Part shown: positions 9,982 through 52,962 of the stretch, piece by piece
How the letters are laid out: each line of letters begins with the position of its first letter
Position numbering within the stretch: the first letter of the stretch is position 1
NCBI GenBank assembly: GCA_019894955.1
Contig: JAGXNQ010000001.1
Coordinates: 1-53,718, forward strand
Length of the DNA: 53,718 nucleotides
DNA from: Promethearchaeota archaeon
GTDB lineage: Archaea; Asgardarchaeota; Lokiarchaeia; Sigyniarchaeales; SOKP01
Direction of reading: 5' to 3'
The notes under the pieces: generated by a model
Told to the model about the DNA's origin: nothing
What the model saw: only the letters and a program-made list of their open reading frames with translations
The model's database searches: none
Translations under genes and position numbers: made by a program

Positions 9982-10716
9982 GTGCCTAAAGTTCTTCATA
10001 ACCTATATCTGATACACCAACATTCGGGAATATGTCTGATCCATCGAAGTTATGGAAATATTGAATTCAACCAAGATTTAGTTTCTGGTTTTTTAACCGC
10101 ACTTAAGGATTTTAGCGTTGAGTTCTCGAAGGGTTCGGGTGAATTAAAAATTATAGATATGCAGGTATTTTACCTGTTATTAGTTTTTAAAGATGGAATT
10201 CTCTGCACGGCTGCTGCAGATAAGAATGATGATGCGAAAATTACACATAAGGCTTTAAGTGATATAATCGAGAGATTCGTGGAAGAATTTGGTGATAAAA
10301 TTGCGAATTGGTCAGGAGATGTTCGAATGTTTAGAGAATTCGAATCAGTCATAGATAATATCTTGCAAAGGGGGAAGATTGCGGAAGTCCCGCTCAAAAT
10401 TCCAATTTTAAAAATATATGAAAAGGATTTTACAAAAAAAAGTAAACAAATCTCTAAGAAAGGTTTAGTTGTTTCAGAAGAAGATTTGCGTACTGTGCAA
10501 GATCAGAAGCCGGAATGGACTTCGAAGCGATTACCTACTCAGGTTATTACACAGGGCTTTTTGGATAAGAATGCCTACAAAATTGCTCATTTAGCAGATG
10601 GATTTCATACAATTTCGGATATAGCGGAGGAAGTAGGTATTCCACAATCGGAGATTGAAGTTATTATTGATGACTTGGATGATTTGGGTTTACTGAAATT
10701 CATTGATATCAAGTGA
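9982..10716 (+). CDS. Longin-like (SNARE-like/roadblock superfamily) domain protein with C-terminal winged-helix
   Basis: GTG start preceded by GGAGGTG. The N-terminal ~125 aa carries a longin-type pattern (LYLIHQHSGICLI...DLVSGFLTALKDFSVEF...FYLLLVFKDGILCTAAADKNDDAKITHKALSDIIERFVEEF). The C-terminus is wHTH-like (ISDIAEEVGIPQSEIEVIIDDLDDLGLLKFI). Confidence 0.6.
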   Translation: MPKVLHNLYLIHQHSGICLIHRSYGNIEFNQDLVSGFLTALKDFSVEFSKGSGELKIIDMQVFYLLLVFKDGILCTAAADKNDDAKITHKALSDIIERFVEEFGDKIANWSGDVRMFREFESVIDNILQRGKIAEVPLKIPILKIYEKDFTKKSKQISKKGLVVSEEDLRTVQDQKPEWTSKRLPTQVITQGFLDKNAYKIAHLADGFHTISDIAEEVGIPQSEIEVIIDDLDDLGLLKFIDIK

Positions 10717-24414: not shown

Positions 24415-25428
24415 ATGTCAGTTGATACAAAAAAGTTACAGGCATTATTAAAATGGTACATGCAGAGTATTGGAGAAAATTTAATAGCTGTTATCATTGT
24501 AAATCGAGAAGGTTTAATTATCGATAGAATTTTTGGTGCATCGGAAAAACAATTGGATGAGGATATAGTTGGTGGAGTAAGTGCTTTAGTTGAGCCTGTT
24601 TTAACAAGGATCACCAAAGAATTTAGTTCAGGATCCTTTGGTACGGGAACGTTTGATACTGAAGAATATAGATTGATTTTCTGTGAAGCTGGTCCTGAAG
24701 CTGTTTTAGTGACGATATTAGATGCGATTGCTGGAGTGGATCCTGTCTTTCCATATGCCTATTTAGCCGCAGAAAAAATTGCTCGAATATTTGACGGAAG
24801 AACTGTAAGTCCTGTAATACCAAAGCTAATTTCAGAAAAAAGGATTAATAATATTGAAAAAAAAGTAAATCAACTCCAAAAGATAAAAGTACAATCGGGA
24901 GAATATGCTTTCAAATTAATCCTTGGAGGTGACGGAGCCGTTGGTAAGACATCCATGGTTCATCGGTTTGTTGAAAACGAGTTCGCAAAAGATTACAAAT
25001 CAACTATTGGAACTTCAATTATGAAGAAAGAATGCAAATTTGATGGATTAGAGAGCTTGGTTCGATTTGTGCTTTGGGATCTTGCGGGACAAGCCCAATT
25101 CAAGAAAGTTAGACAATCTTATTTATCAAACGCTGAAGCAGGTATATTAGCATTCGATGTTACAAATCCTTCTTCATTCCAAAGCATTGAAAATTGGCAT
25201 AAAGAAATCATTTCAGCTTCCCCTAACATATCACTTATTCTAATTGGAAATAAGATTGATTTAGTAGATAATAGAGTAGTTTCCAGGGAAGATGGAGAAA
25301 AAACAGCTGAAAAACTTGGAATTCCATATATTGAGACATCCGCTAAGACCGGTGAAAGTATTAATGATGCTTTTAGAATGTTGGCATTGCAGATGATTAA
25401 GAATTATCTTGTAGGTGAAGAAATATAG
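24415..25428 (+). CDS. Roadblock/LC7 (MglB-like) domain fused N-terminally to a Rab/Ras-like small GTPase
   Basis: Residues 1-~125 carry a roadblock pattern (IGENLIAVIIVNREGLIIDRIFGAS...VGGVSALVEPVL...EYRLIFCEAGPEAVLVTILD). The G domain has G1 GGDGAVGKTS, G2 YKSTIG, G3 WDLAGQ, G4 GNKIDL and G5 ETSAK. There is no C-terminal Cys. Confidence 0.85.
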   Translation: MSVDTKKLQALLKWYMQSIGENLIAVIIVNREGLIIDRIFGASEKQLDEDIVGGVSALVEPVLTRITKEFSSGSFGTGTFDTEEYRLIFCEAGPEAVLVTILDAIAGVDPVFPYAYLAAEKIARIFDGRTVSPVIPKLISEKRINNIEKKVNQLQKIKVQSGEYAFKLILGGDGAVGKTSMVHRFVENEFAKDYKSTIGTSIMKKECKFDGLESLVRFVLWDLAGQAQFKKVRQSYLSNAEAGILAFDVTNPSSFQSIENWHKEIISASPNISLILIGNKIDLVDNRVVSREDGEKTAEKLGIPYIETSAKTGESINDAFRMLALQMIKNYLVGEEI

Positions 25429-41914: not shown

Positions 41915-43132
41915 TTGGTTGCATATTTCTATATTCTATTAAACGAATTTAGAGCAATAATGTTAAAAGAAGGACTTACTAAAAAGGAAATAACTGAAAT
42001 ACTTGAAGGGAAGCTTAAACAAGATTTTTCTTACGATTCGGGATCAATATTAGGATCGATGTGTACGGATCCCCATGATTTTGGGAAGGAAATCTACACG
42101 AAATATATTTCTAAAAACCTTGGTGATCCAGGTTTATTTTTAGGAACAACAAAATTAGAAGAAGAACTCACTAGAGAAATTGGTGATTTATTCAACGGCA
42201 AAAATATAGTCGGAACATTTACTACGGGAGGATCAGAAGCGAATATTATAGCTATGAGAATTGCTAAGAAATTACATCCTGAAATAAATAAACCAGAAGT
42301 AGTCCTACCTATCTCTTCTCACATCTCTTTTGATAAAGCGGCAGATCTTTTAGGTATAAAATTGAGGAAAGCTAAGATAAAGGAGAATTATGAATTAGAT
42401 ATCGCCCATTATGCGAGTTTAATTAATAAAAATACTTGTGGAGTAGTAGGGATTGCTGGAACAACATCATTAGGATTAATTGATCCGATAAAAGAAATAG
42501 GAAATTTGGTACATGATAAAGACATCTTTTTTCATGTAGATGCTGCTTTTGGAGGTTTTATTTTACCTTTTCTAAAGGATATCGGTTACAAAGTTCCTTT
42601 ATGGGATTTTTCTGTTAAAGAAGTAGACTCTATTACTGCAGATCCTCATAAAATGGGTCTTGGTATTATTCCCTCTGGGGGATTTTTCTTAAAAGATGAA
42701 TCAATTTTAGAAAAGACGGGATTTGAAATTCCATATTTAGCAGGAGGGAATTTTAAACATTTTCATATCGTCGGCACACGACCTGGAGCTTCAGTAATTG
42801 CTTTTTGGGCTATAATGAAATATTTAGGGAGGGATGGGTTTACAAAAATGGTCCAAAACTGCATGCGGAATACTGAATATTTAGCTAAAAAAATTTCAGA
42901 AATTCAAGGGATTAAACTTGCCGCTCAACCAGTTCTTAATTTAGTTGGGATTACAACCGAAGATAATGAATCAATATGTGAAATTGATAATAAATTAAGG
43001 GAAAAGAATTGGATGTTGGGTAAATTTATAGATTTTAATCTAATTAGAGCAGTAATGATGCCTCATGTTAAATATGAACATTTGAATCGATTTATAGAGG
43101 ATCTTGAAGAAATTTTAAGCAGCTCAAAGTAA
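41915..43132 (+). CDS. mfnA: PLP-dependent tyrosine/aspartate decarboxylase (MfnA type)
   Basis: Blocks FTTGGSEANIIAMR, FHVDAAFGGF and SITADPHKMG (PLP lysine) are present. The probable real start is the ATG at 41960 (MLKEGLTKKEI), not the TTG at 41915. Confidence 0.85.
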   Translation: MVAYFYILLNEFRAIMLKEGLTKKEITEILEGKLKQDFSYDSGSILGSMCTDPHDFGKEIYTKYISKNLGDPGLFLGTTKLEEELTREIGDLFNGKNIVGTFTTGGSEANIIAMRIAKKLHPEINKPEVVLPISSHISFDKAADLLGIKLRKAKIKENYELDIAHYASLINKNTCGVVGIAGTTSLGLIDPIKEIGNLVHDKDIFFHVDAAFGGFILPFLKDIGYKVPLWDFSVKEVDSITADPHKMGLGIIPSGGFFLKDESILEKTGFEIPYLAGGNFKHFHIVGTRPGASVIAFWAIMKYLGRDGFTKMVQNCMRNTEYLAKKISEIQGIKLAAQPVLNLVGITTEDNESICEIDNKLREKNWMLGKFIDFNLIRAVMMPHVKYEHLNRFIEDLEEILSSSK

Positions 43133-43201
43133 ATCTTAATAAGAATGAAAGTAATTTTATAATTTAAGAACTCTAAGAATTAAGAGAATACCACTTTAAG
43201 A

Positions 43202-43987
43202 TTGAAAAAAAGAATGGCGAAAGATAAGAAAAAGTCATTGGGAATTAAAACAACCAGATATTTTACAAAAACGTGCTTAAATTGCAATTTTGAATATCCA
43301 AATTGGTTTACAAATTGTCCAAAATGTGGTATAGCCTGGGACTTTGTTGAAGCAGAAAAGACTAGTGGTACAAAGGATGCCCTAAAGAAAACAATTAAAA
43401 TCATAGTTAAAATAACCGAAGAAGATTTTGATGAAGCTCTTGAGCGAGTTCAATTGAATTTTTCTGCTGATCAAGGAATTTCATGGTATCAAATGGAAAT
43501 GATAAGTAAAACTGATTATTTCGTTGCAGAACTTGCGGATGTGCCCACAGGATCTACTATCATCTACTTTATTGAGGTGCGATTAAAAAATGGAGAGATC
43601 ATAGTAGAAAATAATGATGGTAATTATTATTATTATATTGTGGGATCACCTTATGAGGATACTTCAAGCTCATCAATTAATTCCAAAAAAATTGAAAATC
43701 AAGAAATTTCGAAAAAAGTAGAGATTCCAGAAAAACCGAAAAAACAAGAAGTAATTACTCGTCCTATTAAACAAGAATATTTCAAACCAAAGACTGAAAC
43801 CCCAAAAATGCCCCATCGAGTTTCTAAAATTCAGACTCCTCAAAATCTAAAAGATTATCGAGCTGAAGATAATATTACGATATTTGGTAATCCTCAAACT
43901 GAAATCGACCCTGATCTTAAATTATGTCCTCACTGTAATTCAAAAATAAAGAAAATGTGGAATACCTGTCCTATTTGTGGAAAATAA
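43202..43987 (+). CDS. Hypothetical protein with Zn ribbons at both termini flanking a beta-rich domain and a K/E/P-rich linker
   Basis: The N-terminal ribbon is CLNCNFEYPNWFTNCPKCG and the C-terminal ribbon is CPHCNSKIKKMWNTCPICGK. The central part WYQMEMISKTDYFVAELADVPTGSTIIYFIEVRLKNGEIIVENNDGNYYYYIV looks like an Ig/CBM-type beta sandwich. The probable start is the ATG at 43214. Confidence 0.6.
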   Translation: MKKRMAKDKKKSLGIKTTRYFTKTCLNCNFEYPNWFTNCPKCGIAWDFVEAEKTSGTKDALKKTIKIIVKITEEDFDEALERVQLNFSADQGISWYQMEMISKTDYFVAELADVPTGSTIIYFIEVRLKNGEIIVENNDGNYYYYIVGSPYEDTSSSSINSKKIENQEISKKVEIPEKPKKQEVITRPIKQEYFKPKTETPKMPHRVSKIQTPQNLKDYRAEDNITIFGNPQTEIDPDLKLCPHCNSKIKKMWNTCPICGK

Positions 43988-44005
43988 ACATTAGGTATTA
44001 AAATT

Positions 44006-45751
44006 TTATACTAATTTATTCCCACATTTGTTACAAAACGCGTAATCAGAAGATAATATTGCCCCACATTGTGAACATGTTAAAAATTCTTTAGGTTGAG
44101 GTTCTTCCTCTATACTAGGTTTTGGACTTGATGTTATTACTGTGAACGAATTAGATTCTGGTTCAATATTTGCTACATTTGGAATAATTCTCAAAGTAGA
44201 TGATTCTTCTATCTTTGGTTCCTTGCTTGAAGCGAAAGATACGAATGGGGCTGATTCTTCAATTTTCACATTTTCCGTTTTTTGTGTTAATGCTTGGAAT
44301 AACGAAGGTGTGCTCATAGTTGCGTCTGATTTAGGAAAAACTACTTCTTGTTCCGGACCCCCCTTTTTCTTTTCTTTTTTCAGTTTTTCTTTTTTACTTT
44401 GTTTCATTTCCTCAATCAATCTATCTTGCTTTTCTTTCTCCTCTTTAAATTTAATTTCTTTTTCCTTTTTCTTCTTATCTTTATCAAGCTTTTTCTTTTC
44501 TTTTTTAGATATAATTGTTTCTGGCATATAGTCAACTAATGATTGAGAAGGTGGAGAAATAGTTGTGGAACTTGGTGCTGGTTCAAATGTCATTGAGGCA
44601 GGTTTGGGTTTTATTGGTTCCTCTTTTTTTGAAACAATAAACGGTACAGTTTTCGTAGTGGTGGTTTGAGGTGAAATTGTTCCTTTATGAGATTTAAATT
44701 CTTCTGGAGTGGGGGCAGGAACAGGTATATTAGGAGAAAAAGGAACGGTTTTTGGTTTATATGATTCTTTTATTGGTCCTTGAGATAATTTTGAAGATTG
44801 CGTTGTTTTTTGTGGCATTTTTGCTTCTTGCGAGAAAATTTCTTCTGGTGTTTTAAATTCAAATTCAGCAGGATCTGGAATGGAAACTTCGGGTATGGAT
44901 GTAAATTCAAATGAAGGTATTGGTTTTGTTTTTGTTTCAATTATTGGTGTTGTTTTTGTTTCAATTATTGGTGTTGTTTTTGTTTCAATTATTGGTTCTG
45001 GCACGGGAGGTGCAGCATATTTGATTTCTGGAATTATTCTTACGGGTTCTGGTATGGGAGGTGCGTCATATTCGATTTCTGGAACTATTCTTACGGGTTC
45101 TGGTACGGGAGGTGCAGCAAAATCATTAGTCTCTAATAGAAATGAACTTCTTTCCTCATTACTACTTACCGGGATTTGACCAGGATTATATACAATATTG
45201 TTTAATAGTTGTGCTGGAACTCCTTGACCAATCATCAAGCAAGCTAAGATATAGAAACAATCTCCAACGCCGTCCCCTGTTTTAGCAGAAGTCTCCATAT
45301 AATAGAGGTTAAAATCTCGGGTAAAATTATTTATTTCTTCAAGTGAAACCATACGTTGATCAGTTAAATCGCTTTTATTTCCCACAAGCAACAATGGAAT
45401 TTCGGTTTTTAGATTAGCTCTCACTTCTTCAATCCATTGAGGTAAATGTTCAAAGCTTACTGCATTGGTAAGATCAAATACTAAGACTGCTCCAAGTGAA
45501 CCTCTATAATACATTGGACGGATTGAGCTAAAGCGTTCTTGACCTCCTGTGTCCCAAAGTTGGAGTTTGGCTTTGATAGGTCCTTCTATGGTATTAATGG
45601 TTATTGTCTTTACGTGAAAGTCAACTCCAATTGTCATTTTATAATCTTCTGTAAAAAAATCCTTGGAAAAGCGTAAAGTTAGAGCGGTTTTACCTACGCC
45701 GCCATCCCCTACGACGATTGATTTAAACAAGTAGTCATATTCTTCTGACAT
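44006..45751 (-). CDS. Rab-like small GTPase with a ~380-aa repeat-containing disordered tail and a C-terminal Zn ribbon
   Basis: G motifs are G1 GDGGVGKTA, G2 YKMTIGVDF, G3 WDTGGQERF, G4 GNKSDL and G5 ETSAKTG. The tail has repeats APPVPEPVRIVPEIEYD x2.5 and IIETKTTP x3, a KEKEKK-rich block and the final CSQCGAILSSDYAFCNKCGNKL. There is no CAAX or CC motif. Confidence 0.85.
   Translation of the reverse strand: MSEEYDYLFKSIVVGDGGVGKTALTLRFSKDFFTEDYKMTIGVDFHVKTITINTIEGPIKAKLQLWDTGGQERFSSIRPMYYRGSLGAVLVFDLTNAVSFEHLPQWIEEVRANLKTEIPLLLVGNKSDLTDQRMVSLEEINNFTRDFNLYYMETSAKTGDGVGDCFYILACLMIGQGVPAQLLNNIVYNPGQIPVSSNEERSSFLLETNDFAAPPVPEPVRIVPEIEYDAPPIPEPVRIIPEIKYAAPPVPEPIIETKTTPIIETKTTPIIETKTKPIPSFEFTSIPEVSIPDPAEFEFKTPEEIFSQEAKMPQKTTQSSKLSQGPIKESYKPKTVPFSPNIPVPAPTPEEFKSHKGTISPQTTTTKTVPFIVSKKEEPIKPKPASMTFEPAPSSTTISPPSQSLVDYMPETIISKKEKKKLDKDKKKKEKEIKFKEEKEKQDRLIEEMKQSKKEKLKKEKKKGGPEQEVVFPKSDATMSTPSLFQALTQKTENVKIEESAPFVSFASSKEPKIEESSTLRIIPNVANIEPESNSFTVITSSPKPSIEEEPQPKEFLTCSQCGAILSSDYAFCNKCGNKLV
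44921..44992. repeat. Coding tandem repeat, 3 x 24 nt (tggtgttgtttttgtttcaattat) encoding (IIETKTTP)3 on the minus strand
   Basis: Units at 44921, 44945 and 44969. Units 2 and 3 are identical and unit 1 differs at 2 positions. Confidence 0.9.
44994..45119. repeat. Coding tandem repeat, ~2.5 x 51 nt encoding the APP(V/I)PEPVRI(V/I)PEI(E/K)Y(D/A) repeats
   Basis: Units at 44994-45044 and 45045-45095, with a partial unit at 45096-45119. A few substitutions occur between units. Confidence 0.9.
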
Positions 45752-45956
45752 GGCGATTCGACCATTTTCTTATGAGAATTATTATAGTGAACTGATATAC
45801 TATTACTAAATTGTAGTAATTATTATTATTAATATAAGTTTAATTTATTATATTTTTACTTATTTTACTATTTTACGTTTATACCTAATACAAGAACAAT
45901 TTTTCTTCAAATATACGACTAATAGAGGAATATTTATTTTATCTATTTAAAAGTAG

Positions 45957-46856
45957 TTATTTCTTTATAGTTTTGCTTAATTCAGCTGCTTCTTTATTAA
46001 GATCATTGTTTTCAACCCATTCTTTTAAATCCTCTAATTGATCTGCAAAATAATCATAAGAATGATCTTTATTTGGATAAATAGCATTTATCACTTCATT
46101 CTTATATTGATTTAATGCTTCAATTATAGATTCTCTTACATTTCCAAAGTACTTTAAAAATTTTGGCTTGAAATCTGTGAAAATACCTAACATATCATGC
46201 AATACGAGAATTTGTCCATCACAATGTGATCCCGCACCTATCCCTATTGTTGGAATATCTATTTCTTTAGTAATAAGTTCTGCGATTTGCCAAGGTATAC
46301 TTTCTAATACTATTGAAAAAACACCCGCTTTTTGAAGATTTTTTGCATCTAATATTAGATGTTTTGCATTTTCAATTGTTTTTCCTTGTACCATAAATCC
46401 TCCAAACCTGTATATTTTTTGAGGTGTAAGACCAATATGACCCATTACTTCAATATCAGCATCTATCATTCTCTCGATCGTGGTACAAATTTCAGTTCCT
46501 CCTTCAACTTTTACAGCTTCTGCACCTCCTTCTTGGATGAATCTACCGGCGTTTTTCACAGCATCTGTTTTATTTATTTTATAAGATAAAAAGGGCATAT
46601 CTCCAACGATTAAAGCATTTGAGACAGCTCTACTTACAGCCTTAGTATGATGAATCATTTCATCCATCGAGACTGATAACGTATTCTGATATCCTAGCAT
46701 AACCATTGCTAATGAATCTCCCACAAGAATTAAGTCTATATCACAAGCATCGACTATTTTAGCTAGAGCATAATCATAAGCAGTAATAGTTACTATTTTT
46801 TCTCCATTTTGCTTTTTTTCTAAAATATTCTTTATCGTAACTTTTTTTAGGGACAT
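45957..46856 (-). CDS. panB: 3-methyl-2-oxobutanoate hydroxymethyltransferase (ketopantoate hydroxymethyltransferase)
   Basis: Blocks ITAYDYALAKIVD...ILVGDSLAMVMLGY, VGDMPFLSY, VKVEGG and GHIGLTPQ are present. A ~35-aa C-terminal extension follows. Confidence 0.92.
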   Translation of the reverse strand: MSLKKVTIKNILEKKQNGEKIVTITAYDYALAKIVDACDIDLILVGDSLAMVMLGYQNTLSVSMDEMIHHTKAVSRAVSNALIVGDMPFLSYKINKTDAVKNAGRFIQEGGAEAVKVEGGTEICTTIERMIDADIEVMGHIGLTPQKIYRFGGFMVQGKTIENAKHLILDAKNLQKAGVFSIVLESIPWQIAELITKEIDIPTIGIGAGSHCDGQILVLHDMLGIFTDFKPKFLKYFGNVRESIIEALNQYKNEVINAIYPNKDHSYDYFADQLEDLKEWVENNDLNKEAAELSKTIKK

Positions 46857-46963
46857 AAAATCACTACTATTTAATTTTGAAAAGTGATATGAATGTTAAT
46901 TTTTATTTTTAACTAAATTTGTCATTCAAATTATAATTTTATTTCTGTAATAAACTATTTTTT

Positions 46964-47920
46964 TCAAGTAAAAGCAGTTTCCAATATCTTTTGAAACTTT
47001 TCTAGTTCAATTTTTATCTCATTTATCATATTTGCTGGCATACTTACTTCTATATAAAAAATATTATCTCCTTCTTTTGAAGATACTGAGAACATTTTTA
47101 CATATTCCGTTTTTTCTTCTGATATTGATACTCTATCATCAATATTCACGTTATTATCCTTAAGTCTCTGAAAAAACTCAAGATCATCATTAATTTTGGT
47201 ACTAATAATCTCCTCAAATGCTCTTGTATCCATAGTTTCTTTATAATGATCTGCTATTACAATCCCTGATTCGGTATATATTATTGCATGATTACATCCA
47301 AATTTATCGACTAGGATTTTTAATTCCTTACTACTTTGTTCCAAACTTAGCAACTTGTTTAGAGAATAGGATATAGCTTTTGAAATGGAAGAAATATCAT
47401 AGTAGGAAGTGTGAAAGAATTTAAATTTCATATCTTGATTTTGAGATGCGATTAAATTTTCCAACATTATACCACGATCTTGAAAATCTGTATCATTTTT
47501 AAATCTCGGATCATGCTTATTAAAACATACTACAACATCATTCGTGTAATCCATTCCTCTATAAATATTTAAAAGATCATATAAATATTGCATTACTTCA
47601 TCAAATTTCAATTCATCTTGTATATCAATGAGAAAATAGAGGTAATCAGTTTCAGAAAAATATATAGGATTATTGACGTAAATCTTTCTAAATTTTTTCT
47701 GGCCTCCCATATCCCAGATGTTAATCCTATAGGTTTCAAGGAATTTAAAAGAACTATAATCAATTTTTATAGTTGGTTTTAAATTTTTGATTCGTTCATA
47801 AAAGTTATATTTCTGACGTAAAGCGATTAATGCACTACTTTTCCCAGCATTGTCTAAACCAGCAATAACTAATTTAAACTCTTTATAATTATGTTTTATA
47901 CCTGACATTTTCAAGAACAA
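46964..47920 (-). CDS. Arf/Sar-like small GTPase with a C-terminal roadblock-like domain (Rag/Gtr-like architecture)
   Basis: G motifs are G1 AGLDNAGKSS (Sar1/Arf-type P-loop), G3 WDMGGQ and G4 FNKHD. The C-terminal ~130 aa carries LKILVDKFGCNHAIIYTESGIVIADHYKE...AFEEIIS...FYIEVSMP, an alpha-beta-beta pattern typical of roadblock domains. Confidence 0.75.
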   Translation of the reverse strand: MFLKMSGIKHNYKEFKLVIAGLDNAGKSSALIALRQKYNFYERIKNLKPTIKIDYSSFKFLETYRINIWDMGGQKKFRKIYVNNPIYFSETDYLYFLIDIQDELKFDEVMQYLYDLLNIYRGMDYTNDVVVCFNKHDPRFKNDTDFQDRGIMLENLIASQNQDMKFKFFHTSYYDISSISKAISYSLNKLLSLEQSSKELKILVDKFGCNHAIIYTESGIVIADHYKETMDTRAFEEIISTKINDDLEFFQRLKDNNVNIDDRVSISEEKTEYVKMFSVSSKEGDNIFYIEVSMPANMINEIKIELEKFQKILETAFT

Positions 47921-48099
47921 GGATAATTTATAATATTCAATCTTTAAAAATTTAAATAATAAATCTCATTTCAGATATTTATTCTTTTTTATTTTCAGTG
48001 GTTTTCTATATCTAATTTGTTTTATAGGTATAATTTAGAAAATTCAAAAAAATTTTTTAAGAAACGAATCCTTAAATATTTCTAAAAGAAAGTTAGGAT

Positions 48100-49134
48100 T
48101 TGAAAAAGATGGACCCAAAAGAAATTGATTTTTACTCACTTGGTTTCAATTTTATAGAAACCAAAATGATGTATGTAGCAGATTATAAAGATGGTGAATG
48201 GAGTGAAGGACAATTAGTTCCATTTTCCAACTTTGAGATCTCACCGGCAGCATGTGTTTTAAACTATGGTCAAGGTATTTTTGAAGGAATGAAAGCTCTC
48301 AAAACGAAAGATGGTGAAATCACACTCTTTCGTCCCAAAGAAAATGCAAAGCGATTGAATAAAAGTGCGAGTCGAATGTTAATGCCTACTTATGATATTG
48401 AGTTATTTATCAATGCTCTTAAACAAGTTGTAAAGGCAAATGAGGATTTCATACCGCCTTATGATAGCGGAGGTGCACTTTATATACGACCCTTGATGAT
48501 TGGGAATGGTCCTATATTGGGAGTAAAACCTGCTCTAGAATACAAATTTATCATCTACACCGTTCCTGTTGGACCGTACTTTCCCGAAGGCTTTAGAGGT
48601 ATTGATTTAGAAATGTCCACGATTTACACCAGAGCCGCTCCAGGCGGAACAGGTTCAGCAAAAACTTGTGCAAATTATGCAGGATCAATGTTACCTGTTA
48701 AAGAAACTAAATCTAGGGGTTTTTCACAGGTTATCTTTTTAGATGCTGTAAATAGAGAATATATTGAAGAAGTTGGAACAGCTAACTTTTTTGCCGTAAT
48801 TGATGGTGCTTTGATCACACCTAAAACGTCAGGGACAATTTTACCAGGAATTACAAGAAAATCTATATTAGAATTAGGTGATAAGAAATTAGGAATGGCG
48901 ACAGAAGAGAGGGATATTTCATATAAAGAAATTTTTGAAGAGTCTTGCACCGAGACCTTTTGTGCAGGAACTGCCGCTGTTATTACTCCAATTAAATCTG
49001 TTGTATTAGAAGATAAAAAGAGAATATTTAGTGATGGTGAACCTGGAGAAACGACAAGGAAACTTTATGAACTATTAACAGGAATCCAGCGAATGGATAT
49101 TGAGGATGAATATGGTTGGGTTGTAAAAATTTAG
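48100..49134 (+). CDS. ilvE: Branched-chain amino acid aminotransferase (fold type IV PLP enzyme)
   Basis: Blocks VLNYGQGIFEGMKA, RLNKSASRM, LYIRPL, EEVGTANFF and LPGITRKSI are present. The probable start is the ATG at 48109. Confidence 0.92.
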   Translation: MKKMDPKEIDFYSLGFNFIETKMMYVADYKDGEWSEGQLVPFSNFEISPAACVLNYGQGIFEGMKALKTKDGEITLFRPKENAKRLNKSASRMLMPTYDIELFINALKQVVKANEDFIPPYDSGGALYIRPLMIGNGPILGVKPALEYKFIIYTVPVGPYFPEGFRGIDLEMSTIYTRAAPGGTGSAKTCANYAGSMLPVKETKSRGFSQVIFLDAVNREYIEEVGTANFFAVIDGALITPKTSGTILPGITRKSILELGDKKLGMATEERDISYKEIFEESCTETFCAGTAAVITPIKSVVLEDKKRIFSDGEPGETTRKLYELLTGIQRMDIEDEYGWVVKI

Positions 49135-49155
49135 ATCTTCTTTTTTTTCAAATAT

Positions 49156-50364
49156 TCAAGTAATCATTATAATCAACTTCATAATAAAATAAGCTGCAAA
49201 AAGAATCCCTAAACATATAAAAGTTGGAGCTGAAAGGGTTTTAATTGTTTTTTTAAAATCTGTTTTAAAGTAGTTGATATTATATGCAAGACATGGATGG
49301 AGTGGTGTTATTAAATAGCCTAAAAAAATTGCTACGTACATAAAGGTAAAATTAAATAGAGGCATAATAAATAGTGAATTTTGAGTTAGATAAATTGGAA
49401 TTAAAATGGAAATAGGTAATTGTACTCTACCTGTTGCAAATCCTAAAAAAAATCCTATTAGGATGAATAATTCAAAGGAAAGGTTCAAACCCCCTAAGTC
49501 CTCAGGAATACTAGAACTAATAAACACATCTAAAAACAAGAACATTGCAATTATTAATAGAGGAAATCTCCAAATTTTCATTTTTTTCATAATTTTAAAA
49601 ATTGAAGAAGGTGTTGTGTGAGAAATTTGTAAAGCGATACTAATACTAGTAAATAGACCAATTAACAGAAAAAATTCTGGTACAATAAATGGAAAGAATA
49701 ACCGACCTAGGAAATCTATGATGGGAGCAATAATAATTGGAAAGATATTATATAAAACAACTTTCAAATTTCTTTCTGAATTTGTGTTTCTTGATGTAAT
49801 TGGCCTCAATAGTGTAATATATCCAATTGCAAACATCCCAAAAAATGGAATTATTAGTGCGATGATTATATTATAGAGCGCCAATCCCGATAGAGAACTA
49901 GCAACTAATATTGCAGAAGATAAGGGGTAAATTAAAAGTAAAACATGTCGATACCATACATTAATACTCACTTTTTTATGTGAAGAAAGGGTTGGATCAA
50001 TTTGATCTACAATTGGAGCAGACATTAGGGCACCTCCAGCAACAGGCAGGAGACCAAATATAGCAGGGCTTAACATTAATGATATTTTATTCGAAACACG
50101 TAATTTATTGATGAGTTCTAAAATTAATCCAGATTCTTCCATAATTCCACCTAAAAGTGCTATAAGAAAAACAGATAAGGCAATTAATATAGTAGACAAT
50201 TCGCAAAAAACATTTAAGCTAGATTTAAACAAATCTACGTTTGTAAGTACTCCAAGTAGTATCGATCCAAAGATTAAGACTATTCCTAATTCTTTTTTTG
50301 AAAAAAATAATATTAACGTAAGAACGATTAAAAAACTCAACCAAGCAGGAATCATAAAGATCAT
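49156..50364 (-). CDS. Polytopic integral membrane protein (10-12 TM helices; ion-transporter-superfamily/DUF401-like)
   Basis: 402 aa of near-continuous hydrophobic helices. The start lies 20 nt after the stop of the upstream small GTPase gene. Confidence 0.7.
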   Translation of the reverse strand: MIFMIPAWLSFLIVLTLILFFSKKELGIVLIFGSILLGVLTNVDLFKSSLNVFCELSTILIALSVFLIALLGGIMEESGLILELINKLRVSNKISLMLSPAIFGLLPVAGGALMSAPIVDQIDPTLSSHKKVSINVWYRHVLLLIYPLSSAILVASSLSGLALYNIIIALIIPFFGMFAIGYITLLRPITSRNTNSERNLKVVLYNIFPIIIAPIIDFLGRLFFPFIVPEFFLLIGLFTSISIALQISHTTPSSIFKIMKKMKIWRFPLLIIAMFLFLDVFISSSIPEDLGGLNLSFELFILIGFFLGFATGRVQLPISILIPIYLTQNSLFIMPLFNFTFMYVAIFLGYLITPLHPCLAYNINYFKTDFKKTIKTLSAPTFICLGILFAAYFIMKLIIMIT

Positions 50365-50384
50365 AATTGTTAATTGTTTACAAC

Positions 50385-50915
50385 TTATTTCTGATGATAA
50401 GAGAGTCTATTTACCAAAATATCAAAAGCCTCTTTTACGTTATACCCCGTTTTTGATGATATCTTAAGGTAATTGATATTTATATGACTCCTTTCTATAA
50501 TATTATTGAGATAATTATCAATAATCACAATCATGTTATTGTCTACAAGGTCATATTTTGTTCCCAAGATTAACGTTGGCATGGTACTAAATTCTCTTAA
50601 TCTTTCTAACCATTCTTCAACATTCTGAAGACTTGTAATGCGTGTTAAATCAAATAAGATAAATATTGCTATAGAACCATCAACAAAATCCTCAAGTAAT
50701 GTCCTAAATTGTCTTTGACCTGCAAAGTCCCACATTACGAAATTAATTTCACTTCCATTAATATTCATATTTTTGGAAAAGAAATCAATGCCCCTCGTTA
50801 GTTCGCTTTTCATATTGAAATTATCATAAACTAAGCGATTTAGGAAGGAAGTTTTTCCAACTCCCCCTCCTCCAGTCACGACTACTTTTACATTCTTTCT
50901 TATCTGAGGATTCAT
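50385..50915 (-). CDS. Minimal Rab/Ras-like small GTPase (176 aa)
   Basis: G motifs are G1 GGGGVGKTS, G2 LTRGIDF, G3 WDFAGQ, G4 GTKYDL and G5 ISSKTG. There is no lipidation motif. Confidence 0.85.
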   Translation of the reverse strand: MNPQIRKNVKVVVTGGGGVGKTSFLNRLVYDNFNMKSELTRGIDFFSKNMNINGSEINFVMWDFAGQRQFRTLLEDFVDGSIAIFILFDLTRITSLQNVEEWLERLREFSTMPTLILGTKYDLVDNNMIVIIDNYLNNIIERSHININYLKISSKTGYNVKEAFDILVNRLSYHQK

Positions 50916-51112
50916 ATCTATTTTTATCTAATTTATGATTTAAAATCACATAATTGTATTTGATTTCTGTAATATAAGAACAAAATAAAAATTTATCATT
51001 CACATATGTGTTCATTAGTGTTGGAATTATTATTCCATTATTTGTCTAGAATCTGCTTATTATGAACTAGAGATAGTTATATAGCACGAGATAAAAAGTA
51101 AAATTAGATATA

Positions 51113-51556
51113 TTAGGCTTTTTTAATTTTGCTAAAAGACTTCTTGTAATCTTTAGGGTTTCCACCAGAGCTCAAAAAATCTATATACACTTTAAGGCTT
51201 TTTAAAAATAAATCTCCAGCCATATCAAGAACAAATCGTTGATCTTCTAACTCAAATTCTGTCCAGAGCGTTACTATTACACTATCTCCTTTGGAAGAGA
51301 AAATATATCCTATTTTTTGCATTGGACTTCCTTCTTGTGTTGAAGTCATCTTTTTTTCGGGGATATTTTCAATTTCAGTATTGATAACATCTCCAACATT
51401 AGTTTTTAAGAAATATTTATGGGGTTCTATTTGTTCACATTCCGTCACCACAATATTCCACACTGGAAGACTTAGATAATCATTCAGAATTTCATATACT
51501 TTTTGTAAAGAAGCATCAATTTCTATACTTTTTTCTAACCTAGGCATAATTATCAA
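51113..51556 (-). CDS. SRPBCC (START/Bet v1-like) ligand-binding fold protein
   Basis: The pattern LEKSIEIDASLQKVYEILNDYLSLPVWNIVVTECEQI...VIVTLWTEFELED...LFLKSLKVYIDFL is typical of the polyketide-cyclase/CoxG-like SRPBCC family. The length is 147 aa. Confidence 0.75.
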   Translation of the reverse strand: MIIMPRLEKSIEIDASLQKVYEILNDYLSLPVWNIVVTECEQIEPHKYFLKTNVGDVINTEIENIPEKKMTSTQEGSPMQKIGYIFSSKGDSVIVTLWTEFELEDQRFVLDMAGDLFLKSLKVYIDFLSSGGNPKDYKKSFSKIKKA

Positions 51557-51588
51557 ATAAATTGATATTACTTTTAAAAATATTCATA

Positions 51589-52962
51589 TTAAATCTCTTC
51601 TCTCAATTTGATGATTTTTCGCTTTAATTTTTTAATTCGAGGATCAGGAACACTATAAATCAAATCATCTTCCATAATTTTAATGGCATTTTGGTATTTG
51701 TGAATAGCTTTAATATAATCCTTATTCTTTTCCGATTTTTCTCCCGTTTCAATAGAAAATTCAAGTTCTATTGCTTTTACCTTCTTCTCAGAATTAAATA
51801 GAAGGCGGGAAGCACTTTTTTCTTCCTCTCTAAATTTGAATTCTCTTGATAGAATTACGGCTTTTTTATATTCTTTTTCAGCATTTTGATAAGCTAACGA
51901 GCGTTCAGCCGATTTTCCTTTCTTTAGTATTTCTTTAATAATCTCCTTTCCTGTATATTCGTCCACATTTTGAATTTTATTTTTTAATTCAACCAAATCC
52001 TCGTCATTAATAATCATTGAAGATATTGGTTGCATTTTAATCTCACGTTTCTGTGTGGTATCGTGCTTTTTTTCTAAATCGCTTAAAATCGTTTCTATTG
52101 GCATTGTTATAATGATTTTTTTTTCAAATAATTGATAAATTTCATATAAAATTACTTTTAGTTGAATGTGGGCTATTTTCTCAACTTTATTTAAGAGAGT
52201 ATTTATATAAAAAAATGGTTTATCACTTAAGGACTCCTTTGCTAATTCAAATATTGCTTTTTGAACCCAATTTTCATTAATTTGCTCTAATATCTCAGGA
52301 GGAATAGCATAGGTTAGTGTCATAGGGAATACTAAATCAATGTTAAATGAGTCGATAATATAATCATTCATTCCTTCATCATTAAAAAGACCTGTCTCTC
52401 GTAGTGTTGTAAAATTATCATTAAAGGTATCTTCAAAGATATCTAAAAACGGATCTACATTTGTTCTCATATGTGGAGAGGCCTTATGATCGAGAATCAA
52501 ACAAATCCGTATGAATTCTCCATTTTTTAGTAATATATTAAAATCATTATACTGAAATTCATAAAAGCGATGTTCTATAATGGACGCATCTGTATTACCC
52601 GATACTTCATTTGATTCCGAGAAGGTTATATTTGCTTGAATAAATCCACTCAGTAAACTAGCATCAATTTCTGCACTAGATACGGGATAATTCAATAATG
52701 ATAATCCAGATTCATTATCCATAATAATAATATGTTTAATATTGAGTACATCGAGAAATTTTTGCCAGATGGATTCTCTTTCCATTTCTTGACGTTTATC
52801 ATCAGAGATGATTTTTAATATTTTTAAATTAGTGGTTATTTCAAATCCAATTTCCTTTATTTTATCAATAATACATATTCTACAAGAGATATCTTTATTA
52901 GCGCAAGTTCTTTTGTCGTTTCGACAATTAAATCCTAATCCATTTATTATGAAATAAACCAT
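51589..52962 (-). CDS. Multidomain hypothetical protein: N-terminal Cys4 cluster, longin-like domain (paralogue of 9982-10716), winged-helix-like segment, C-terminal TPR-like helical repeats
   Basis: The N-terminal cluster is NCRNDKRTCANKDISCRIC. The longin-like segment HIIIMDNESGLSLLNYPVSSAEIDASLLSGFIQANITFSES...FIRICLILDHKASPHMRTNVDPFLDIFEDTF aligns with the 244-aa protein, sharing SG..L, LLSGF..A..FS.E and an F...F tail. The C-terminus contains AERSLAYQNAEKEYKKAVILS...YIKAIHKYQNAIKIMED. Confidence 0.6.
   Translation of the reverse strand: MVYFIINGLGFNCRNDKRTCANKDISCRICIIDKIKEIGFEITTNLKILKIISDDKRQEMERESIWQKFLDVLNIKHIIIMDNESGLSLLNYPVSSAEIDASLLSGFIQANITFSESNEVSGNTDASIIEHRFYEFQYNDFNILLKNGEFIRICLILDHKASPHMRTNVDPFLDIFEDTFNDNFTTLRETGLFNDEGMNDYIIDSFNIDLVFPMTLTYAIPPEILEQINENWVQKAIFELAKESLSDKPFFYINTLLNKVEKIAHIQLKVILYEIYQLFEKKIIITMPIETILSDLEKKHDTTQKREIKMQPISSMIINDEDLVELKNKIQNVDEYTGKEIIKEILKKGKSAERSLAYQNAEKEYKKAVILSREFKFREEEKSASRLLFNSEKKVKAIELEFSIETGEKSEKNKDYIKAIHKYQNAIKIMEDDLIYSVPDPRIKKLKRKIIKLREEI

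Follow-up and report, generated by a model that had tools for sequence, protein, structure and literature searches.

Does a dense run of eukaryote-like small GTPase genes in the genome of an Asgard archaeon mark a functional island, or is it no more than the number of such genes in the genome would lead one to expect? This question is raised by the stretch of DNA analysed here (the window), the 53,718 nucleotides of contig JAGXNQ010000001.1 from assembly GCA_019894955.1 of a Promethearchaeota archaeon, which is the largest contig (C111) of a 2.77-Mb assembly in 244 contigs, with about 31% G+C. Three small GTPases of different architecture are encoded within 43–51 kb of the window: a Rab-like protein with a long tail that ends in a Zn ribbon (the tailed Rab), a Rag/Gtr-like protein with a C-terminal roadblock domain (the Rag-like GTPase) and a single-domain Rab-like protein (the plain Rab). 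A first-pass annotation, made from the sequence alone, had described positions 43,202–52,962 as an island of GTPase, roadblock and longin modules and had proposed a set of proto-trafficking or signalling switches. Our analysis of this region has led to a mainly negative result: however striking eukaryote-like GTPase genes in a row may appear in an Asgard genome, they need no special explanation, and the 43–53 kb region is probably an ordinary Lokiarchaeial stretch in which three unrelated GTPases, acting as independent switches of already described types, have come to lie by chance among the metabolic genes mfnA, panB and ilvE.

Number and spacing of the GTPase genes

All of the genes listed in the first-pass annotation are present, with open reading frames (ORFs) at exactly the coordinates named there, and its domain reading proved essentially correct when compared with Pfam, profile and fold evidence. 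Using Pfam, we found four Ras-superfamily GTPases in the window, and only four, each of them scoring above the Ras or Arf cut-off: a roadblock-Ras fusion (24415–25428, forward strand; Pfam Ras, 166.7 bits), the tailed Rab (44006–45751, reverse strand; Ras, 178 bits), the Rag-like GTPase (46964–47920, reverse strand; Arf, 72.6 bits, and Gtr1_RagA, 71.7 bits) and the plain Rab (50385–50915, reverse strand; Ras, 118 bits). The latter three are those of the 43–51 kb region; the roadblock-Ras gene lies 18.6 kb from this trio and outside the proposed island. Taking G1 (GxxxxGK[ST]), the switch I threonine, G3 (DxxGQ), G4 ([NT]KxD) and G5 as the signature of a small GTPase, all four translations exhibit the complete set, and motifs G1–G5 are intact in each of them; the individual motifs, in the order in which the proteins were listed, are GDGAVGKT/WDLAGQ/NKID/SAK, GDGGVGKT/WDTGGQ/NKSD/SAK, GLDNAGKS/WDMGGQ/NKHD/(SYYD) and GGGGVGKT/WDFAGQ/TKYD/SSK. 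Direct reading of the C-termini (...YLVGEEI, ...KCGNKLV, ...LETAFT and ...LSYHQK) also confirmed that none of the four carries a C-terminal lipidation motif, neither CAAX nor CC, with the sole C-terminal cysteines being those of the CxxC...CxxC pattern in the Zn ribbon of the tailed Rab. Local duplication was considered as the source of the trio and was rejected: the three proteins share 22–33% identity with each other, and the nearest paralogue of each is found on another contig.

In order to judge whether the GTPase genes are clustered beyond chance, loci were counted as the union of Pfam Ras, Arf and Gtr1_RagA matches and compared with a null distribution obtained by permutation. An iterative hidden Markov model (HMM) built from the G domains of the window was rejected for this count, having drifted into translation-factor and other GTPases (73 hits). 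The genome contains 55 small-GTPase loci in 2.77 Mb, which corresponds to one per 50 kb. One triple of loci within 7 kb was observed against a null mean of 0.30 (P = 0.25 for at least one such triple), and the four loci found on one contig compare with a mean maximum of 2.9 under the null (P = 0.18 for at least four on some contig); pairs of loci within 10 kb numbered 12 against 6.7 (P = 0.05). As this assembly is fragmented, we added the same kind of test for two single-contig genomes of the same order, G032 and G038, with 53 and 58 Ras hits, respectively. For G032, 6 pairs within 10 kb were observed against 6.4 under the null (P = 0.60) and the fullest 53.7-kb window held 4 Ras hits against 3.9 (P = 0.69); for G038, the corresponding values were 8 against 7.6 (P = 0.49) and 5 against 4.05 (P = 0.21). 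GTPase loci are scattered as at random in all three genomes, so that four GTPases per window are the maximum one would expect in a genome of this kind. A local density above chance, as claimed for this region, was thus not observed in either the triple or the contig test, and it was just such a lack of local enrichment that the first-pass annotation had itself named as the outcome speaking against its proposal. At about one GTPase gene per 50 kb, four genes per window or three within 7 kb are to be expected somewhere in every such genome, and the genome-wide density of GTPase genes provides the yardstick by which similar islands should be judged.

Gene order in related genomes

Related loci were identified with an alignment of the tailed Rab, used to scan a set of genomes in which each species is represented once; this returned 80 loci with full-length orthologues of 44–80% identity. 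Nearly all of these come from genomes named Promethearchaeota or Promethearchaeia archaeon, including Loki_b31 and Loki_b32, and lineage lookup identifies Promethearchaeia as the class formerly called Lokiarchaeia. From these named close relatives, the genome belongs to the class Promethearchaeia of the Asgard archaea, which agrees with the assignment made initially from gene content; the genes behind that assignment, coding for PolD, an unsplit RpoB, TFE, an MBF1-like protein, PAN and NAC, were all confirmed by profile searches, as were panB, ilvE and a Cdc6 gene in the window.

Co-occurrence was counted over the 60 related loci having at least 6 kb of flank; since genomes of kin are not independent, counts among relatives are descriptive and no statistical tests were applied to them. 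Other members of the genus show the order tailed Rab – panB – Rag-like – ilvE – plain Rab as well, and only inside a colinear block of at least 20 kb that reads PAN – PUA – NAC – membrane protein – cupin – NrdD – MazG – MfnA – ZnR – tailed Rab – (panB) – (Rag-like) – ilvE – (DUF401) – plain Rab – (SRPBCC) – (longin protein), where brackets denote variable genes and ZnR the Zn-ribbon protein encoded next to the tailed Rab. The ZnR gene was present in all 60 loci, ilvE in 56, the plain Rab in 51, panB in 45, the Rag-like GTPase in 20, the longin protein (of the type encoded at 51589, upstream of the plain Rab) in 15, the SRPBCC protein in 9 and DUF401 in 7, with all three GTPases found together in 17 of the 60. 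In another family of the order (G032, G038), only (ZnR) – tailed Rab – MazG remain together, beside PAN–PUA–NAC, and the best homologues of the Rag-like GTPase and the plain Rab are located elsewhere and dispersed. Across the 60 loci and these other genomes, no retention of the trio beyond general colinearity was found. The roadblock-Ras gene stays 18–22 kb away on the same contigs of relatives.

The metabolic backbone of this block is formed by three genes. The first, mfnA (41915–43132, forward strand), encodes an MfnA-type decarboxylase (NCBIfam TIGR03812, 447 bits against a cut-off of 299) and is kept in nearly all related loci; panB (45957–46856, reverse strand) encodes 3-methyl-2-oxobutanoate hydroxymethyltransferase (Pfam Pantoate_transf, 374.7 bits; NCBIfam panB, 333.8 bits) and ilvE (48100–49134, forward strand) a branched-chain amino-acid aminotransferase (NCBIfam PRK13357, 430 bits; Pfam Aminotran_4). 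Together they make up a loose pantothenate-precursor set (41915–49134) with the GTPase and Zn-ribbon genes interleaved, and with such housekeeping genes in between and ilvE on the opposite strand, the earlier description of the region as a neighbourhood and not one operon is borne out. A polytopic membrane protein of the DUF401/TIGR00529 type (49156–50364, reverse strand; Pfam DUF401, 108 bits; TIGR00529, 132 bits, below cut-off) had been regarded as the membrane element belonging to the plain Rab. We reject this partnership, because the two genes are adjacent in only 7 of 60 related genomes: the DUF401 gene is a variable insertion and not a conserved partner of the plain Rab. The small SRPBCC/START-like protein between the plain Rab and the longin gene (51113–51556, reverse strand) matches Pfam Polyketide_cyc2 with 27.6 bits, barely above the cut-off. 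Far from this region, an ORF of 158 amino acids (aa) at 418–894 exhibits a predicted helical N-terminal part followed by a long Gly/Pro repeat (GGPPGGPP...).

Could the trio, together with the longin and SRPBCC proteins, represent a functional module kept by selection, be it a cascade of GTPases or a unit for proto-trafficking or signalling, in which the proteins would act on each other? Several observations weigh in this direction and against an arrangement by chance. In 51 of the 60 related genomes, the tailed Rab and the plain Rab retain their order and lie 1.3–4.9 kb apart despite protein identities of only about 50–60%, and this proximity could reflect selection and not inertia alone. Upstream of the plain Rab, a longin-domain gene is found in about 30% of the loci, with a small longin gene directly beside it in four genomes, and a further Rag-like gene (the orthologue of C228:7554–8525) lies 6–8 kb past the longin gene in G007, G002, G010 and G014. 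When the count is widened to all module genes, that is, to the 97 distinct genes of this genome with a GTPase, roadblock or longin domain, the window contig holds 6 against 1.9 expected, with a nominal P of 0.011 that becomes 0.06 genome-wide (for any contig). Finally, this genome contains 22 ORFs with a roadblock domain and 27 with a longin-like domain of the type encoded at 9982, and of 42 stand-alone longin or roadblock genes, 13 have a GTPase gene no more than 5 kb away, where 5.7 would be expected by chance (P = 0.003), so that some local pairing of GTPases with regulators does exist in the genome; this nearness could help to match regulators with their GTPases. In spite of this, we consider a selected module unlikely. 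The GTPase loci themselves are not enriched beyond chance in any of the three genomes tested, housekeeping genes are interleaved with ilvE on the opposite strand, and the Rag-like, DUF401, SRPBCC and longin genes are each absent from most related genomes while the others persist, with the homologues dispersed in other families. The long contigs C233, C211 and C66 match the window contig in module genes per 10 kb. For the Lokiarchaeon Prometheoarchaeum MK-D1, too, Tran, Akil, Senju & Robinson (2024, Commun Biol, PMC10933270) noted that genes for GTPases as a rule do not share operons with those for roadblock, longin or TRAPPC3 proteins.

A more specific proposal concerns the Rag-like GTPase alone: through a functional tie to branched-chain amino-acid and pantothenate-precursor metabolism, it would act as a switch that senses nutrients or metabolites and foreshadows eukaryotic Rag/Gtr, hence its position between panB and ilvE. 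The gene, where present, indeed lies between these two in 17 of 20 loci (in the window 107 bp from panB and divergent from ilvE), the window holds the loose precursor set described above, and in three genera of another family, f2 (g8, g9 and g11), the reciprocal-best Rag-like homologue is found beside the phosphopantothenate synthetase gene and near a pantoate-kinase-like gene. However, two thirds of the related genomes have panB and ilvE without a Rag-like GTPase, and the flanks of the phosphopantothenate synthetase gene, examined over 7 kb in both directions in another 20 genera of the class, contained no GTPase, with the core arrangement aRF1 – phosphopantothenate synthetase – GNAT conserved in these genera. 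Furthermore, a single ancestral syntenic region, a few tens of kb long, comprises panB, the synthetase gene and the tailed Rab, and for this reason the adjacencies of the Rag-like gene to panB and to the synthetase gene are not independent. That the Rag-like GTPase could couple branched-chain 2-oxo-acid or pantothenate/coenzyme A status to its GTPase cycle, as an ancestral metabolite-linked switch that would prefigure the sensing of amino acids by Rag/Gtr proteins of eukaryotes, consequently appears very improbable to us, as does the proposal as a whole.

Some further observations concern the same genes. In the f2 loci, the Rag-like homologues (L126:4814–5866, L128:5168–6154 and L129:675–1508) are accompanied by GNAT, phosphopantothenate synthetase, aRF1 and pantoate-kinase-like genes; in genus L135, the pantoate-kinase-like, panB, phosphopantothenate synthetase and mfnA genes stand directly together. 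The arrangement in G016, with which the region is colinear, indicates that the right end of the window (53718) is probably followed by the end of contig C200, on which the phosphopantothenate synthetase gene lies. A Rag-like homologue next to an ilvE-like gene in G026 was set aside as the orthologue of a different paralogue (C22 type) and not of the Rag-like GTPase in the window.

An artefact of assembly or binning, in the form of a chimeric contig or collapsed paralogues, might be suspected in a fragmented metagenome-assembled genome (244 contigs, 88% completeness, 3.8% contamination) and can be dismissed almost entirely, as it is contradicted by the same gene order on long contigs of many independent assemblies, including the chromosome-level CP070831 and CP070805, and G+C is uniform across the window.

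Domain architecture and putative roles of the individual proteins

With the three GTPases taken as chance neighbours, each of them, like the roadblock-Ras fusion, would be an independent nucleotide-dependent switch of a described Asgard type, and the features that may determine its positioning or regulation differ from protein to protein. In the tailed Rab, the G domain (aa 10–170) is followed by some 380 aa of tail rich in Pro, Glu and Lys and then, at the C-terminus, by a Zn ribbon (Pfam Zn_ribbon_3, aa 557–580) of the invariant form CxxCG...CNKCG. This full-length architecture is kept across the order, for example with 35–36% identity over aa 2–580 in G032 and G035, and the tail contains the conserved short motifs YKPKT.PF, DYMP, SLFQ.LT and LRIIPNVA.I. 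Within the tail-coding part, at 44918–45119, we found tandem DNA repeats of 24 bp × 3.3 and 51 bp × 2.5: the former (98% matches) encodes TPIIETKT three times and is specific to this genome, whilst the latter encodes a unit containing APPVPEP, and the length of the tail varies through repeat expansion. The neighbouring ZnR protein (43202–43987, forward strand) exhibits a Zn ribbon at each end (Pfam DZR and Zn_ribbon, aa 21–43 and 239–261) and a beta-rich middle domain. Its gene is convergent with that of the tailed Rab, with 18 bp between them, and adjoins it in 79 of 80 related loci as well as in G038 of another family. The conserved tail motifs, the repeat-driven variation in length, the invariant ribbon and the constant convergent neighbour together suggest protein-mediated positioning of the tailed Rab: the long flexible tail and terminal Zn ribbon may hold the protein in place of a lipid anchor, with the ZnR protein as a likely partner. 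This order-wide pairing, as a possible substitute for a lipid anchor, may repay further work.

The plain Rab consists of a single domain of 176 aa, for which the best sequence matches in the PDB are Rab6 and Rab11 (E about 1e-28 to 1e-22). Its regulation presumably occurs in trans, through longin or roadblock proteins; a possible candidate is the longin protein whose gene is found next to that of the plain Rab in about 30% of relatives. At four related loci (L023:4145–4606, L025:4257–4727, L051:4400–4855 and L072:4326–4796), a small longin-like gene of the family encoded at 9982 (152–157 aa) is found directly upstream of the plain Rab; it is absent from that place in the window.

In case of the Rag-like GTPase, an Arf/Rag-type G domain is followed by a C-terminal roadblock domain, with the match to Pfam Gtr1_RagA (71.7 bits, cut-off 22) spanning aa 16–238. 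The TTG start listed for this gene is probably too far upstream, as Met5 is conserved in the orthologues and would place the start at 47908. The roadblock domain, which had been read from the sequence alone, is supported by an AlphaFold2 model built on an alignment of 19 orthologous sequences (predicted local distance difference test score, pLDDT, 74; predicted template modelling score, pTM, 0.73): aa 194–317 adopt the alpha-bb-alpha-bbb-alpha topology. When compared with known structures using Foldseek, the model aligns over its full length (313–324 columns) to LokiRagO (8yl2, E 9e-16), RagA/C and Gtr1/2, with template modelling (TM) scores of 0.63–0.70 for the best fold matches, and LokiRagM (8zla, 9m28) is also among the top matches; the sequence profile likewise has its best matches in the Loki Rag structures (E 3.7e-31 and 6.9e-24). 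The protein thus exhibits the order of domains that defines the Rag/Gtr family, a G domain and then a C-terminal roadblock domain. By analogy to eukaryotic Rag/Gtr and to an oligomeric Loki Rag-like structure, it probably dimerises via the roadblock domain. A Pfam scan revealed no second Rag-like gene in the window; paralogues are found on contigs C22, C217 and C228.

The fusion encoded at 24415–25428 carries its roadblock domain at the N-terminus (aa ~10–135), followed by the Ras-like GTPase domain (aa 167–327). Taken alone, the N-terminal domain matches Pfam Robl_LC7 only weakly (E 0.11). The assignment made at first reading is nevertheless upheld by the orthologues, 12 of 13 of which match Robl_LC7 (best E 3.7e-6) and two of which match MAPKK1_Int (MP1/LAMTOR3). 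The profile of the orthologues matches 9jue_D in the PDB (9jue; MK-D1 Roadblock3; E 2.3e-4) as well as MglB, and an HMM built from the roadblock genes of this genome scores the domain at E 1.9e-31. The fusion would probably carry an MglB-like platform in cis. Its conservation is unusual: orthologues occur as single copies in all families of the order (47–57% identity), and identities within the genus amount to 73–90%.

A longin domain is recognised by a bb-alpha-bbb-alpha-alpha fold together with a profile match to known longin domains. Both longin-like domains reported for the window find support at the profile or fold level, the second of them as a longin or roadblock fold. The protein encoded at 9982–10716 (forward strand) consists of a longin-like domain (aa 1–135) and a C-terminal winged helix, with weak matches to Pfam Longin (E 0.003–0.009; the window protein itself is below cut-off, E 0.003) and HTH_47. 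It belongs to a family with 27 members in this genome, in which 6 of 11 sampled paralogues match Fuz_longin_1 (best E 2.7e-8) and for which the family profile finds longin domain 1 of MON1 (E 2e-4), BET5 and the mu/sigma subunits of AP complexes in the PDB. The protein at 51589–52962 (reverse strand) combines an N-terminal Cys4 motif of four invariant cysteines (C13, C20, C27 and C30) with a longin/roadblock-fold domain (aa ~75–190) and a helical C-terminal part. No Pfam family matched above cut-off, and no library family spans the protein. Its aa 75–181 align to the 9982 longin-like family (hhalign 94%, E 1.5e-7), and a model of low confidence (pLDDT 61) retrieves zeta-COP (E 7e-4), AP2 sigma and also MP1/p14 and MglB in Foldseek; on these profile and model grounds, the domain can be assigned to the longin/roadblock superfold, within which it may be of either kind. 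The long helical C-terminal half shows weak MIT/TPR-like matches.

Comparison with described Asgard and eukaryotic systems

The closest point of comparison is the GTPase repertoire of MK-D1, which comprises 74 small GTPases, of which 35 have a single domain and 26 are fusions with roadblock or longin domains; roadblock fusions occur in either order, GTPase-roadblock and roadblock-GTPase, heterodimers have been predicted for the Rag-like proteins, terminal cysteines are lacking, and REP, GDI and RabGGTase are not known in Asgard archaea (PMC10933270). Like the window, this repertoire includes single-domain Rab-like, roadblock-GTPase and GTPase-roadblock (Rag-like) proteins together with stand-alone longin and roadblock proteins. 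The lack of C-terminal cysteines is likewise shared, and the scattered gene arrangement of MK-D1 fits the 55 loci and random scatter found here. MK-D1 is a different species from another family of the same order, but nothing in the window differs from it in kind. The proposed set of proto-trafficking or signalling switches consequently restates what has been published for Asgard GTPases in general, with nothing that would be particular to this locus.

The PDB contains crystal structures both of Rag-like GTPases from Lokiarchaeota and of roadblock proteins from MK-D1; no papers describing 8YL2, 8ZLA, 9M28, 9JUE, LokiRagO or LokiRagM were found in the literature, and the identities used here are those of the PDB titles. 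The Rag-like GTPase of the window resembles LokiRagO, LokiRagM, RagA/C and Gtr1/2 in having a G domain followed by a C-terminal roadblock domain, although it is only about 20% identical to the solved Loki proteins and, in contrast to Rag/Gtr, has no second Rag-like gene beside it in the window. We know of no Ragulator or TOR context for this protein.

The plain and tailed Rabs exhibit Rab-like G domains with intact G1–G5 motifs, as in Rab6, Rab11 and Ypt, and find their best PDB matches among the Rabs; they differ from eukaryotic Rabs in that the window GTPases lack a prenylatable C-terminal cysteine and, in case of the tailed Rab, in that the hypervariable tail is replaced by about 380 aa ending in a Zn ribbon. 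The roadblock-Ras fusion, the N-terminal domain of which finds 9jue and MglB in profile searches, recalls the roadblock platforms of MglA/MglB and Ragulator (LAMTOR), but differs from them in carrying the roadblock domain in cis, on the same chain as the GTPase. Every architecture in the window belongs to an already described Asgard kind, and none of them is new in kind.

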